A stretch of 64,000 nucleotides of DNA, taken from positions 1,696,001 to 1,760,000 of the forward strand of contig CP084166.1 in NCBI GenBank assembly GCA_021513695.1, in the 5' to 3' direction. Under the pieces are notes generated by a model that ran no database searches, had not been told where the DNA came from, and saw nothing but the letters and a program-made list of their open reading frames with translations. The translations under genes and the position numbers were made by a program. The DNA comes from Candidatus Heimdallarchaeum aukensis. Its GTDB lineage: Archaea > Asgardarchaeota > Heimdallarchaeia > Heimdallarchaeales > Heimdallarchaeaceae. This document shows positions 5,079 to 48,580 of this stretch, in pieces (position 1 is the stretch's first letter; each line of letters opens with the position of its first letter).

Positions 5079-5999
5079 TTGGAGAAAAATAAAATGTCTA
5101 AAGATCAAATAAAAAGTTTAGTTAATTCAGTAGCTGTATTAAAAGAAATGGTAGAAAATATTGTCAAAGTCGTACAAAAAAGATTTGAAGAGTTTGAGAA
5201 AGAAATTACAGCAATAAAAAATGAACTCCAAGAGATCCGAACAGGAACTAGTGTAGAAAGTTCTTATGATTATACAGCATTAGAAAAGAAGTTAAACAAA
5301 TTAGAAACTCGATTCGAAAAATTAAATGAAAAGTTCCTTCTATCAATCGCTGCAAAAACTGTTGAAAAAAGAGAAACAGAAGTAATTCCTAAAACTCCAG
5401 CAGTAGAACCTAAACCAGCACCACAAGTAACAACTCCAGTAGCAGAATCTAAACCAGCACCACAAGTAACAACTCCAGTAGCAGAATCTAAACCAGCACC
5501 ACAAGTAACAACTCCAGTAGCAGAATCTAAACCAGCACCACAAGTAACAACTCCAGCAGCAGAATCTAAACCAGCACCACAAGTAACAACTCCAGTAGTA
5601 GAACCAAAACCAACTCCTCAAGTAACAACTCCAGCACCACAAGTAACAACACCGCCACCAGAACCAAAACCAACTCCTCAAGTAACAACTCCAGCACCAC
5701 AAGTAACAACACCGCCACCAGAACCAAAACCAACTCCACAAGTAACAGCACCAGCTACAAAACCCGTCCCCTCTAGTGAGAGAGATGTTAGTCCAATAGC
5801 TAAAGAAGCGCCTAGTGCACCAATACCTGCTCCTCCAAAGCTTGAACAACCAACCTCACCTCAATCGTTTAGTCCATCACGCATTGACACTGTAGCAAGA
5901 TCATTAGAAAAAAAAGAAACACCAAGTACAGCAGAGGAACCAGCTTCAGGAGACAAAGCTGAATTGCTAAAAGCGTTAAAGAAATTAGAAGAGTTATAA
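5079..5999 (+). CDS. Hypothetical coiled-coil protein with Pro/Thr-rich repetitive linker (KPAPQVTTPVAES repeats)
   Basis: N-terminal ~100 aa heptad-like coiled coil, then 5x 13-aa and ~2.5x 20-aa P/T/Q/V repeats, ending in the acidic helix KAELLKALKKLEEL. No signal peptide or TM. N-terminus is a paralog of 61565..62398. Confidence 0.5.
   Translation: MEKNKMSKDQIKSLVNSVAVLKEMVENIVKVVQKRFEEFEKEITAIKNELQEIRTGTSVESSYDYTALEKKLNKLETRFEKLNEKFLLSIAAKTVEKRETEVIPKTPAVEPKPAPQVTTPVAESKPAPQVTTPVAESKPAPQVTTPVAESKPAPQVTTPAAESKPAPQVTTPVVEPKPTPQVTTPAPQVTTPPPEPKPTPQVTTPAPQVTTPPPEPKPTPQVTAPATKPVPSSERDVSPIAKEAPSAPIPAPPKLEQPTSPQSFSPSRIDTVARSLEKKETPSTAEEPASGDKAELLKALKKLEEL
5412..5750 (+). repeat. In-frame tandem repeats: about 5 x 39 bp (aaaccagcaccacaagtaacaactccagtagcagaatct) followed by about 2.5 x 60 bp (ccaactcctcaagtaacaactccagcaccacaagtaacaacaccgccaccagaaccaaaa)
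   Basis: Near-perfect direct repeats readable in the sequence from 5412 to ~5750. They generate the shadow ORFs 5343..5849 and 5566..5751 on the opposite strand. Confidence 0.85.
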
Positions 6000-45266: not shown

Positions 45267-45824
45267 ATGGGAAAGGATATTGAAGTCAAATTTAGAGACT
45301 ATGAAGTGTACAAACTGAGTATCTGCGGACCAGGTCAAGCAGGAAAGACAAGTTTATGTAAAAGACTTGTACATAACAAATTTACCAAATCCTATAAAGA
45401 AACAGTGGGGGCAGAATTTTTTAGCTATAAATTTAACACAAAGAAAGGAAAAAATGTTGGCTTATTTTACGATTTTGCGGGACAACAACGATTTGTAAGT
45501 GTACGTAATGTTCTTTATCCTGGCACAGATGCTGCAGCAGTTGTATTTGATGTTACAAAAAGGGATTCTTTTCGTTCTGTTGCCCAATACATTAGAGAGT
45601 TAAGGACGAAACTTAAAGATGTTGAAATAACAATTGTTGGAAACAAAATTGATTCTAAAAAAAGAGAGATTTCATTTGAAGATGCAAAGAGAATAGCAGA
45701 AAAACTAGGTTGTAAGTACGTTGAAACCTCTGCTGCAACTGGTGAAGGATTAGGAGAATTTTTCAAAACATTAATACATTCTGCAATTTCATATAAAAAG
45801 AAAAAAATAAGTGTTGTAGAATGA
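45267..45824 (+). CDS. Ras/Rab-like small GTPase (second copy)
   Basis: G1 GPGQAGKTS, switch II YDFAGQQRF, G4 GNKID, G5 ETSAATG. 185 aa. Confidence 0.8.
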   Translation: MGKDIEVKFRDYEVYKLSICGPGQAGKTSLCKRLVHNKFTKSYKETVGAEFFSYKFNTKKGKNVGLFYDFAGQQRFVSVRNVLYPGTDAAAVVFDVTKRDSFRSVAQYIRELRTKLKDVEITIVGNKIDSKKREISFEDAKRIAEKLGCKYVETSAATGEGLGEFFKTLIHSAISYKKKKISVVE

Positions 45825-45919: not shown

Positions 45920-46783
45920 TTGATTACTATGAGTCATCAGATTTCAAAAGTTGCGGTTATTGGAGCAGGAACAATGGGTGCGGGTATAGCACAAGTCCTA
46001 GCTCAAAAAGGATTACAGATATCATTAGTGGATATAAAGCAAGAATTCATAGATAAAGGCATTGAAAGAATCAAAAAATTTCTAGCAAGATCTGTAGAAA
46101 AAGGCAAAATCTCTGCCGAAGAGATGGATAATACAATTTCTAATATATCTCCTTTTGTTAATATTGAAGATGCGGTAAATGGAGTCGAACTTGTTATTGA
46201 AGCAATTGTGGAAAATGAAGAAATAAAGAAGGACCTTTTTAAAAAGCTCGACGATATTTGTTCTCCTGAAGTAATATTGGCAAGTAATACATCAGCTATT
46301 AGTATTACCGCGCTGAGTGAAGTAACAAATAGACCAGATAAGGTTCTAGGATTACACTTTTTCAACCCTCCGGCAATCATGAAACTTGTAGAAATAATTA
46401 AAGGAGAAAAAACAAGTGAAGAAACTATCCAGAAAGCTATTAAGTTCTGTGAATATCTTGGAAAAACTCCGGTACCATCCAATGAGGCACCCGGATTTAT
46501 AGTAAACAGGCTGTTATGGAAATTCCTTAATGAAGCATACAAGCTACTAGAAAATGGCGTAGCATCAAAAGAAGGAATTGATCAAGCCGTGAAACTTGGA
46601 TTAAACCATCCGATGGGGCCCTTTGAACTAAGTGACTACATTGGTTTAGATGTAATGCTTAACATTGGTGATTATATTGCATCAAAGTTAGGTGACGAAT
46701 ATAAGCCGTGTGATATTTTAAGAAATCTTGTTGAGCAAGGTAAGCTAGGTCGAAAAACTGGGGAAGGTTTTTACAAATATTGA
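45920..46783 (+). CDS. hbd: 3-hydroxyacyl-CoA (3-hydroxybutyryl-CoA) dehydrogenase
   Basis: KVAVIGAGTMGAGIAQV Rossmann motif. ~285 aa with the HCDH C-terminal domain (GFIVNRLL). Confidence 0.85.
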   Translation: MITMSHQISKVAVIGAGTMGAGIAQVLAQKGLQISLVDIKQEFIDKGIERIKKFLARSVEKGKISAEEMDNTISNISPFVNIEDAVNGVELVIEAIVENEEIKKDLFKKLDDICSPEVILASNTSAISITALSEVTNRPDKVLGLHFFNPPAIMKLVEIIKGEKTSEETIQKAIKFCEYLGKTPVPSNEAPGFIVNRLLWKFLNEAYKLLENGVASKEGIDQAVKLGLNHPMGPFELSDYIGLDVMLNIGDYIASKLGDEYKPCDILRNLVEQGKLGRKTGEGFYKY

Positions 46784-46803
46784 ATTATTTCTTTTTTATT
46801 TTA

Positions 46804-46813
46804 GGATAGAACT
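46804..46813 (+). repeat. Left copy of 10-bp target-site duplication GGATAGAACT flanking the IS element
   Basis: Identical 10-mer at 46804-46813 and 47576-47585, immediately outside the terminal inverted repeats. Confidence 0.6.
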
Positions 46814-47575
46814 GGTAGTGTCTAGTTTTTATACCACCTCCTAGGTAAAAAGGAACTAAGGGGAGGATGTCCTAAGCTCTGATGAGGACGAACGAAATTA
46901 TAATAGAGCATAAAGAGAGTAAGAAAACCAGAAAGATGAGTAGAGCCATAGACGGCACGGATAGGACAAGTGCAGTGGAGAATAGAATGAAACCAACGAT
47001 AACTCTTAAGAGTAGCATTAAAACGTTCAATATAGGAGCGTAAACCACCTTTGATAACGGAGATTTTAATACCGAGACGAAGTAAGACAGGATACCATAC
47101 CCCTGCATCTGTAACGACAATACGAGGCTTAGAACCCCAACATTTGAACCAATAACGAAAAGTTAGTAAACATTCAAGATTACTCCGTCCTTTAGTAATA
47201 CTAAAACCCAGTAAAGTCTTGTTGTAAGGATCTAACGCGAACCACATGTACATTGAGCCTTGAGAGGTCTTAATCTCTGTTTCATCTACTACTATAATCT
47301 CTGGTATTCCCCCTCTCTCTGCTACAACTCTATGTAAACTTTCCCTAAAGAGGCTGAATTTCTTTACCCAATACCATAGTGCCTGGTGTGTTAAACCATT
47401 CTTCCATGCTACTGTCCTCAACCCATTCTTTGAACCGATATATTCATAAATAGCTCTTATGATTATTTTCTTGGGGATTCTGCTCCCTTTAAAAAGGGAG
47501 TATATTCTTAGTTTGTTCATATTTTCACATTAGAATCCCCAATAATATTTTTGTCGGGAGAAACTAGACACCACC
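46814..47575 (-). mobile_element. IS6-family insertion sequence (762 bp) with ~15-bp terminal inverted repeats
   Basis: IRL ggtagtgtctagttt (46814-46828) vs IRR aaactagacaccacc (47561-47575): 14/15 complementary. Single 232-aa DDE transposase. Visibly GC-richer than surroundings. Flanked by direct repeats. Confidence 0.8.
46822..47520 (-). CDS. tnp: IS6-family DDE transposase
   Basis: D (IIVVDETEIK), D ~61 aa later (RIVVTDAGVWY), E 34 aa later (YIERFNATLK), giving DD(34)E spacing. YNFVRPHQSL integrase-core motif. N-terminal HTH. Confidence 0.8.
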   Translation of the reverse strand: MNKLRIYSLFKGSRIPKKIIIRAIYEYIGSKNGLRTVAWKNGLTHQALWYWVKKFSLFRESLHRVVAERGGIPEIIVVDETEIKTSQGSMYMWFALDPYNKTLLGFSITKGRSNLECLLTFRYWFKCWGSKPRIVVTDAGVWYPVLLRLGIKISVIKGGLRSYIERFNATLKSYRWFHSILHCTCPIRAVYGSTHLSGFLTLFMLYYNFVRPHQSLGHPPLSSFLPRRWYKN

Positions 47576-47585
47576 GGATAGAACT
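47576..47585 (+). repeat. Right copy of 10-bp target-site duplication GGATAGAACT
   Basis: See left copy. Lies ~10 bp upstream of the putative tfb TATA box (cttatata, 47596-47603). Confidence 0.6.
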
Positions 47586-47623
47586 ATAAGTCAAACTTAT
47601 ATAGTGGTCAGTTTTATATATCA

Positions 47624-48580
47624 ATGAAGAATATGCCCTACGATACTATTAACATATCTGGCGAGAATAAGACATCTTTACGACGTTGTCCAGATTGTAA
47701 CAGTACAAAATTAAATTTTGATTCACAACGAGGTGAAACAAGTTGTGCTATGTGTGGACTTGTAATTGAAGAAGGATTTATTGATACAAGTCAAGAGTGG
47801 CGGGCATACAACCATGATCAATTTGAAAAGCGAGCAAGAACAGGTTCTCCTAAAAACTTACTGACCTATGACAATTATGGGACTGTAATCAGTTATTCAA
47901 ATAAAGATATTTTTGGTAATAAAATTTCAGTTAAAAAAGCAAGTCAAATGTTTCGACTTCGAACATTACAAAGGAGAGCAGTTTTTCAGTATGGAACAGA
48001 AAGAAATCTACTATTTGCATTAAGCGAAATCAAGCGAATAGGAAGCCAATTAAATCTTCCACAGAAAATTCAAGAAACAGGTTCTATAATATATCGTAAA
48101 ATTCTGAAGACTGGACTAATTAGGGGGAGATCCACTGAATCTTTAGTTGCAGCCAGTGTATACTTAGCTTGTAGGTTAAATAAACAACCAGAGACACTAG
48201 ATGATGTAGCAAAAAAAACAAGACTATCTCGTAAAAAATTAGCAAGGAATTATCGTCTTTTATTGAAAAATCTAGATATAAAGATTCCTCTTGCTACTCC
48301 AGACACAAAATTAGAGAAATATGCTAGTATTCTTAATTTTCCTCCAGAAGTCGTTAATGAAGCCAAAGACATATTAGTCAAAGCAAAAGAAAAGAAGATA
48401 ACAGTAGGTAAAAACCCTAATTCTCTCGTTGCTGCTGCGTTGTACATATCTGCAATTAAAAATGGACATACTTGTGCACAAAAAACTATTTCTGAAGTTT
48501 GTCAAATTACCGAAGTAACGTTAAGAAATAGGTATAAACAGTTTCTTAAGACGCTAAAGATTAAGATTGTCTTGAAATAG
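47624..48580 (+). CDS. tfb: Transcription initiation factor TFB (TFIIB homolog)
   Basis: N-terminal Zn ribbon CPDCNSTKLNFDSQRGETSCAMCGLV, B-finger/linker, two cyclin-like repeats. Confidence 0.95.
   Translation: MKNMPYDTINISGENKTSLRRCPDCNSTKLNFDSQRGETSCAMCGLVIEEGFIDTSQEWRAYNHDQFEKRARTGSPKNLLTYDNYGTVISYSNKDIFGNKISVKKASQMFRLRTLQRRAVFQYGTERNLLFALSEIKRIGSQLNLPQKIQETGSIIYRKILKTGLIRGRSTESLVAASVYLACRLNKQPETLDDVAKKTRLSRKKLARNYRLLLKNLDIKIPLATPDTKLEKYASILNFPPEVVNEAKDILVKAKEKKITVGKNPNSLVAAALYISAIKNGHTCAQKTISEVCQITEVTLRNRYKQFLKTLKIKIVLK

Follow-up and report, generated by a model that had tools for sequence, protein, structure and literature searches.

The locus between hbd and tfb

Contig CP084166.1 of Candidatus Heimdallarchaeum aukensis carries, in the 64,000 nucleotides analysed here (positions 1,696,001 to 1,760,000, hereafter the window), an insertion sequence (IS) of 762 bp at window positions 46814-47575, between the genes hbd and tfb. 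This IS is likely to be an intact and recently active element, of a kind found only in Heimdallarchaeum and Heimdallarchaeaceae, that occupies a natural hotspot in front of the gene for a general transcription factor. The same homologous segment has been hit by at least two, and probably three, independent insertions, as seen from empty and occupied alleles in related strains. In window coordinates, the locus is laid out as follows.

45267-45824, plus strand: gene for a small Ras/Rab-like GTPase (Pfam Ras, 2.8e-39), two genes upstream of the IS
45920-46783, plus strand: hbd, 3-hydroxyacyl-CoA dehydrogenase, the upstream gene, with stop codon TGA at 46781-46783 (Pfam 3HCDH_N, 1.5e-68; 3HCDH, 5.7e-36)
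46788-46802, plus strand: T-rich tract tttcttttttatttt after hbd, which stays with hbd after insertion; read from its sequence as the probable archaeal oligo-T terminator of hbd
46804-46813, no strand: left copy of the 10-bp target-site duplication GGATAGAACT, present as a single copy in the empty sites L012 and L014
46814-47575, minus strand: complete IS6-like insertion sequence of 762 bp, Heimdallarchaeum-specific clade, missing from the allelic contigs L012, L014 and L023
46814-46828, no strand: terminal inverted repeat GGTAGTGTCTAGTTT at the transposase 3' end, from repeat comparison
46822-47520, minus strand: transposase gene, 232 amino acids, DDE type (D79, D138, E165, K172), identical to UJG39720.1
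47541-47552, minus strand: A/T box AAAAATATTATT, whose centre lies some 26 nt before the transposase ATG; probable TATA box of the transposase, with transcription divergent from tfb
47561-47575, no strand: terminal inverted repeat at the transposase 5' end, on the tfb side (reverse complement GGTGGTGTCTAGTTT), from repeat comparison
47576-47585, no strand: right copy of the 10-bp target-site duplication GGATAGAACT, present as a single copy in empty sites
47586-47629, plus strand: 44-bp invariant block that begins exactly at the duplication edge (window compared with L010-L015 and L023); putative promoter
47624-48580, plus strand: tfb, transcription initiation factor B, a TFIIB homologue of 318 amino acids (Pfam TFIIB, 3e-38; Zn_Ribbon_TF, 6.3e-15), called alike in four public contigs

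The terminal inverted repeats GGTAGTGTCTAGTTT (46814-46828) and GGTGGTGTCTAGTTT (reverse complement of 47561-47575) agree at 14 of 15 positions and are the only such matches in the window (0.14 expected by chance), and GGATAGAACT occurs there only at the two edges of the element (0.08 expected). The sole open reading frame (ORF) of the IS occupies most of it, and the stop codon of the transposase falls within the terminal repeat at 46814-46828. The repeat comparison and the intact ORF of 232 amino acids (aa) bear out the preliminary description of a genuine IS of 762 bp with terminal repeats matching at 14 of 15 bp. The GC content of the element is 38.7%, against 31.8% (standard deviation 2.7%) for the window, in which just 0.6% of 762-bp windows are equally GC-rich, and GC at third codon positions is 34% in the transposase gene compared with 19-25% in neighbouring genes. 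The IS is compositionally foreign, as is often the case with mobile elements.

Some further features were noted in the window. Within the IS, a 17-nt inverted repeat (47465-47481 and 47532-47548) flanks the transposase start codon, with a 15-nt hairpin just inside it (47476-47507); in the mRNA these structures could sequester the transposase start, a possible translational control as in other IS. The only other stretch of the window that matches the IS in GC-richness is at 5079-5999 on the plus strand, where a 306-aa ORF has tandem Pro/Thr-rich repeats (ESKPAPQVTTPVA and so on) and resembles the intragenic tandem repeats described for Heimdallarchaeum genomes (PMC8813620). The Ras/Rab-like GTPase belongs to the eukaryotic-signature proteins typical of Asgard archaea, in agreement with the host assignment. 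A search with Rfam over the entire window gave no matches.

Empty sites and the target-site duplication

Looking up the exact TFB protein of the window in public contigs yielded four contigs. In L012, the hbd-tfb spacer is 68 bp long and holds GGATAGAACT only once, and a second, identical empty site with a single GGATAGAACT was found in L014 by a metagenome scan with the promoter sequence; the tfb regions of the contigs with these empty alleles are 99.6% identical to the window. Because L012 and L014 hold a single GGATAGAACT, the 10-bp repeat is a true target-site duplication and the boundaries of the element are those given above. The intact duplication claimed from the window sequence is thereby proven, and the comparison with related strains places the insertion after their divergence. 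Moreover, the Logan assemblies L017 and L018 match the window at 100% identity for 3912 bp; they show its left junction and stop after the first 27 bp of the IS, so the arrangement in the window is no product of misassembly. The element is an intact, genuine IS whose insertion here postdates strain divergence and is fairly recent.

Ten copies of the IS show recognisable duplications, with lengths from 9 to 11-12 bp: 9 bp in L001, L004 and L015; 10 bp in the window, L002, L003 and L009; 9 or 10 bp in L005; 11 bp in L020; and 11-12 bp in L006. No duplications surround the copies in L016 and L019. The clade characteristically produces duplications of 9-11 bp, with a flexible stagger, and the 10 bp found here are not 8 bp extended by chance; what had been remarked as one duplication longer than the 8 bp of IS6 proves to be general in these elements.

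Recurrent insertion at the tfb spot

Over 5 kb of downstream sequence, contigs L010 and L011 share 99.5-99.8% identity with the window, and both start within the IS. At their junction, ...AAACTAGACACTACC is followed directly by GGATAGAACT, which means that the 3' end of the transposase gene abuts tfb, in the orientation opposite to that of the window. Their IS end differs from that of the window at 4 of 113 nucleotides, against a difference of 0.2-0.5% in the flanks (Poisson P = 0.003 given the divergence rate of the flank). Because the whole IS end is swapped, neither homologous recombination nor IS-mediated inversion accounts for this arrangement, since both keep the end joined to its flank.

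L015 contains a complete IS that is 96.7% identical to that of the window. This copy, too, lies in the opposite orientation, and its 9-bp duplication, AGATAAGCT, is perfect. The flanks of the L015 lineage are 87-93% identical to the window, and AGATAAGCT is this lineage's version of the segment that holds GGATAGAACT in the window. An empty allele of the same lineage is available in L023, which has a single AGATAAGCT and is 99.7% identical, over 1746 bp and with no gaps, to L015 from which the IS has been removed; L013 also carries a single AGATAAGCT and no IS. In every case ATAAGTC comes directly to the right of the duplication, and the 44-bp promoter block is always intact. Lineage-specific perfect duplications, together with empty alleles, argue against one old shared insertion. 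The segment is therefore a natural hotspot, struck independently at least twice and probably three times, and in wild populations it exists in three states: empty, occupied as in the window, and occupied in the opposite orientation.

Contig L013 (JGI Ga0190359_1061388) is itself composite, its hbd side being 99.7% like L015 and its tfb side 100% like L012, with the switch at the 44-bp block; it represents a natural recombinant between the lineages or else a chimera of strains.

Host range and copies elsewhere

Close homologues of the transposase number only 17 among 5.8 billion clustered proteins, and the named ones all come from Heimdallarchaeum or Heimdallarchaeaceae. In species-representative genomes, nine copies of the element were found, all in Ca. 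H. endolithica PR6 and 88-96% identical in nucleotides to the IS of the window from tip to tip, and Ca. H. aukensis has at least two protein variants of the family. The family is a multi-copy resident of both Heimdallarchaeum species. The GC-richness on which the preliminary description had based a recent horizontal acquisition is real, but with at least nine copies in Ca. H. endolithica and at least two variants in Ca. H. aukensis, a recent acquisition of the family is unsupported; the recent event is this insertion. The element is not specifically described in Wu et al. 2022 (PMC8813620) or in the 2026 survey of archaeal IS (PMC13343696).

Several of the other copies have features of their own. 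Two copies on the Ca. H. endolithica contig CP084167.1, L001 and L006 (at about 0.515 and 0.530 Mb), are inverted relative to each other and about 15 kb apart, with nearly identical targets (ATTTGCAAT compared with (T/A)TTTGCAATAGT), which represent either a repeated target motif or a second small hotspot. On the same contig, L007 and L008 (about 2.980-2.986 Mb) are degenerate direct copies about 4.5 kb apart, without duplications and with mismatched outer flanks; they could have been left by a pseudo-compound transposon or by recombination between the copies, although the pattern is suggestive at most. L020 (positions 2190-2255, JGI Ga0187538_172385) is a diverged copy, at about 80% nucleotide identity, with the 11-bp duplication ATTCTACGGAC. 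Two end-like sequences in tandem, AAAACTAGATACTGTTAGTG and AAAACTAGATACTATT, lie 11 bp upstream of this copy; they resemble the right end of the IS, and the copy may have inserted next to the end of a related element. Among the metagenome homologues, P0011 and P0016 continue with unrelated C-terminal sequence after approximately residue 125-170; judged by sequence, these are frameshifted, decaying copies, which indicates that the family has inactive members.

Relationship to the IS6 family

The sequence of the transposase is that of UJG39720.1 (K9W45_07575) from Ca. H. aukensis, which GenBank labels 'hypothetical protein'. Its invariant catalytic residues are D79, D138 and E165, with K172 at E+7, and the catalytic motif is DD(26)E, not the DD(34)E originally assigned to it. 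ISHbo1, a recognised haloarchaeal IS, has DD(25)E, and the bacterial ISCpe7 has a spacing of 33-34; in terms of sequence, DD(26)E thus appears to be an archaeal IS6-type spacing.

Among the NCBIfam models, that of IS6 (NF033587) ranks first, with 47.7 bits against a cut-off of 125 and over residues 10-146 only. The transposase is below the threshold of the NCBIfam ISC774 model, and in Pfam it has no match to PF13610 (DDE_Tnp_IS240, cut-off 27 bits), just sub-threshold matches to rve and rve_3. When 1.84 billion representatives were searched with a profile of the clade, 243 proteins came up at E <= 1e-3, and the next relatives beyond the clade align over the full length at about 30% identity. 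Among these relatives, P0027, P0028 and P0030 pass both NF033587 (137.7, 128.4 and 137.3 bits) and PF13610. A tblastn search of the PLSDB plasmids returned 35 records at 23.5-28% identity; among those listed, every match with an annotated feature is an IS6-family transposase, and H8 has no annotated feature. In UniProt, the close homologues are named 'IS6 family transposase'. The size of 762 bp, the one ORF and the ends GGTAGTG and GGTGGTG, which fit GGnnnTG, agree with what two papers give for IS6, namely 700-890 bp, one ORF and short repeats starting with GG (PMC7986276; PMC6807381), GGnnnTG being a terminal feature of IS6/IS26 (PMC6807381).

Membership of the rve integrase-core families IS3 and IS481 was considered and rejected. 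The transposase scores 36 bits against a cut-off of 160 for IS3 and 19.6 against 224 for IS481, rve and rve_3 are sub-threshold, and 762 bp and 232 aa do not suit families defined by more than 1 kb, a frameshifted or longer transposase and duplications of 3-6 bp (IS3) or 4-15 bp (IS481). An AlphaFold2 model of the transposase (pLDDT 66.6) has an RNase H-like integrase fold, and a structure search with it matched retroviral integrases, TnsB, ISCth4 and IstA; these model-based matches confirm the DDE fold and do not tell families apart. A sequence search of the PDB with the transposase gave nothing useful.

The closest likeness is to archaeal IS6-like elements (ISfinder IS6 clade A: ISHbo1/ISH14, ISPfu1, ISC774), which are also about 700-800 bp long with one transposase of roughly 210-235 aa, terminal repeats of 14-18 bp that frequently start with GG, a short spacing from D to E (DD(25)E in ISHbo1), a K at E+7 and a C-terminal YN..R.H motif. 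Their duplications are mostly 8 bp, although ISH15 and ISPfu5 are recorded with 9 bp (PMC6807381), compared with the variable 9-11 bp of the Heimdall clade. The signature of archaeal members is E--F---K-R (PMC6807381); that of the intermediates is ERWFETLKDR, whereas in the Heimdall clade (ERFNATLKSYRW) it is shifted to E-F----K--R, with F at +2, K at +7 and R at +10. The Heimdall transposase also differs from these elements in being only about 25-28% identical to theirs, in missing the NCBIfam IS6 and ISC774 and the Pfam DDE_Tnp_IS240 models, and in a host range so far restricted to Heimdallarchaeum/Heimdallarchaeaceae. With IS26 and the bacterial IS6 elements it shares a compact, one-gene organization, a terminal repeat fitting GGnnnTG and a DDE transposase with an N-terminal helical, HTH-like region, and theirs is the nearest annotated family by sequence. 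Bacterial IS6 elements, however, have DD(34)E and E-DH---K (PMC6807381), and IS26 is described with a strict 8-bp duplication (PMC7986276), unlike the 10 bp found here. Cointegrate-only transposition has been demonstrated for IS26.

The inclusion of archaeal 'IS6' elements in the IS6/IS26 family has already been called into question (Harmer and Hall 2019; PMC6807381). The sequence evidence points to IS6 as the nearest family and to the element as a divergent offshoot of the archaeal IS6 branch, linked to it via intermediates and matches at 24-28% identity. Two features that define IS6, the curated score thresholds and the 8-bp duplication, are absent. The earlier assignment to IS6 thus holds as to the nearest family, given the plasmid matches, the intermediates and GGnnnTG, and fails on the thresholds, DD(26)E and the 9-11-bp duplications.

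Proposed mechanism and target choice

The 232-aa DDE transposase would recognise the 15-bp terminal repeats GGTRGTGTCTAGTTT and join the IS ends to target cuts staggered by 9-11 bp, here by 10 bp, with duplication of GGATAGAACT as the outcome. Movement would probably be copy-in via a cointegrate that is then resolved, by analogy with IS6; simple insertions with duplications are the form of insertion observed. The copy in the window interrupts a 68-bp spacer that separates the probable hbd terminator from the tfb core promoter, and it leaves untouched the block with the probable B recognition element (BRE) and TATA box. IS26 is generally considered to have no marked target preference, except for insertion beside an existing copy. 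No natural hotspot comparable to the tfb site is mentioned in the passages of the IS6 review consulted (PMC7986276).

When the flanks of ten sites are symmetrised, a T-rich tract appears 7-10 bp outside the duplication, with T at -8 in 17 of 20 half-sites (binomial 3e-6, post hoc). A target weight matrix built from the eight other sites, with the tfb sites excluded, scores the tfb position, within 1 nt, as the best in the 68-bp spacer. Across L012 it ranks the tfb site only 161st of 11337 positions (top 1.4%) and is therefore too weak to explain recurrence. The free gap between the oligo-T tract (46788-46802) and the 44-bp block (47586-47629) is approximately 10-15 bp. This block is the same in all lineages compared, including one that is about 10% diverged. 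Besides the tfb ATG (47624), it includes the palindrome ATAAGT-CAA-ACTTAT (47586-47600) and the motif cttatata (47596-47603). A mild bias towards T-rich/A-rich flanks, combined with a narrow neutral gap, explains the position within the spacer and part of the hotspot; it does not explain repeated hits on this spacer, for which the remaining cause would be either stronger local targeting or selection through tfb expression.

Other explanations of the position were tried and rejected. End targeting in the manner of IS30/IS26 does not apply to the tfb site, where AAACTTATATAGTGG and AAACTAGACACCACC agree at 5 of 15 positions. The palindrome ATAAGTNNNACTTAT is not enriched as a recurring operator (10 matches with at most two mismatches, 10.1 expected). 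A recombination breakpoint at the IS was also dismissed: identity between the window and L012 is mosaic throughout, at 89-100%, and the step near the site is not special. Deeper TFB orthologues (P0180, 82% identity) have another upstream gene, and hence no homologous site. The tfb gene and its promoter (47586-48580) are 99.6-100% identical to those of L010-L014, compared with 89-95% for neighbouring DNA (e.g. between the window and L012), and this sequence pattern suggests a recently exchanged or swept tfb allele.

Alternative explanations

Inheritance of one old insertion, with empty sites arising through precise excision and the opposite orientation through in-place inversion, would be in keeping with an element at the same homologous position in three backgrounds. 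It is nevertheless very improbable: each duplication matches the empty allele of its own lineage (GGATAGAACT or AGATAAGCT), the swapped end takes along the asymmetric repeat position 4 and the sequence beyond it, such an end is produced neither by recombination between 15-bp repeats nor by IS-mediated inversion, and the IS copies are 3.5% apart with flanks that differ by 0.2-0.5%. In the preliminary description, the same element at the same site in relatives was to indicate an old insertion. Such an element does exist there, but its opposite orientation, its own perfect duplications and its own empty alleles speak for recurrence. It is extremely improbable that repeats caused a misjoin in assembly, either of the window or of the metagenome contigs. 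IS copies do break assemblies, as in L010, L011, L017 and L018, which end inside the IS, and L016 and L019 are without duplications; however, two independent Logan assemblies give the same left junction, the opposite-orientation junction is present in both JGI and NCBI contigs and is complete in L015, and toward the tip the two IS ends have no more than 11 identical bases in common, not enough to cause a k-mer misjoin. Weighing against recurrent insertion by a copy-in IS are the left junction of the L010/L011 insertion, which lies outside these contigs, the possibility that L010 and L011 may come from the same sample, gene conversion among IS copies, which could inflate the divergence between the IS of the window and that of L010, the modest rank of the tfb site in the weight matrix, and the weakness of the copy-in analogy, given a transposase under the curated IS6 thresholds.

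An ordinary IS6/IS26 member, with DD(34)E and an 8-bp duplication lengthened by two chance bases, would fit the top-scoring family, the label given to close homologues in UniProt, and the size, single ORF and GG-starting terminal repeats. It is an improbable reading in view of the score of 47.7 bits against 125, the missing PF13610 match, the DD(26)E spacing, the 24-28% identity to annotated IS6 transposases and the doubts about the archaeal 'IS6' elements as a whole (PMC6807381). Duplications of 9-11 bp at ten sites also stand against it, and the empty-site comparison proves 10 bp here. The recurrence itself could instead reflect selection, if insertions about 50 bp upstream altered tfb expression and were repeatedly favoured, either because upstream control is removed or because read-through or divergent transcription is added. 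In Escherichia coli, IS1 and IS5 insertions recur upstream of flhDC, glpFK and bglGFB in natural and laboratory populations; experiments have shown that they activate transcription, and, glpFK excepted, they are scattered over tens to hundreds of bp. Independent insertions in a short region upstream of the promoter of a regulatory gene are common to both systems, whereas at tfb the position is the same to the nucleotide, in both orientations, and any effect on expression is hypothetical. Selection is made conceivable by three hits (at least two, probably three, independent) at one position despite a sequence preference that places it only in the top 1.4%, by the presence of both orientations, and by a tfb-promoter tract that is 99-100% identical between flanks of 89-95%, compatible with a recently spread allele. 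However, selection alone cannot fix insertion to the same nucleotide with the 44-bp core promoter always untouched, empty alleles persist in both lineages, and the narrow gap between terminator and promoter could act equally via purifying selection; selection as the cause of the recurrence is thus a tentative possibility. A more specific proposal, that the element is directed by a factor bound or formed upstream of the tfb core promoter, or that insertions have been repeatedly selected for rewiring tfb expression, is rather unlikely. Candidate factors would be the TBP/TFB pre-initiation complex or a regulator on the palindrome ATAAGT-CAA-ACTTAT at the duplication edge.

Possible consequences for tfb

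The end of the IS at 47575 is 20 bp upstream of cttatata (47596-47603), the probable BRE/TATA of tfb as judged from sequence, and 48 bp upstream of the tfb ATG; the distance of about 10 bp given in the preliminary description applies solely to the end of the duplication, not to that of the IS. With the centre of the TATA box at about 47600, 24 nt separate it from the tfb ATG downstream, a distance plausibly compatible with a leaderless or near-leaderless tfb mRNA, and starts at ATG 47624 and ATG 47633 are not separable by sequence alone. In the orientation of the window, the transposase is transcribed away from tfb, and in L010, L011 and L015 it reads toward tfb. Between the transposase stop codon and the tfb promoter, these three contigs have no run of five or more T, so read-through toward tfb is possible in that orientation. 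An effect of the IS on tfb expression is plausible on these grounds.

Significance

An IS insertion alone is ordinary; what is unusual is recurrence at the same nucleotide, in both orientations, before a general transcription factor gene. The element is best described as an Asgard-restricted variant of the archaeal IS6-like kind at a recurrent insertion hotspot. It represents a previously undescribed, Asgard-restricted clade of IS6-like elements with DD(26)E and flexible 9-11-bp duplications, and it bears on whether the IS6/IS26 family should include archaeal 'IS6' elements at all. Factor-directed insertion, if true, would parallel in archaea the promoter-tethered integration of Ty1/Ty3, and repeated selection, if true, would mean that a general transcription factor has been rewired in a lineage close to eukaryotes. 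The three allelic states are already present in sequenced enrichment cultures, which makes the question testable. If the cause lies in promoter-bound factors or in selection on tfb dosage, the hotspot would provide a handle on the regulation of transcription in Heimdallarchaeia and on the interplay between transposons and their hosts.

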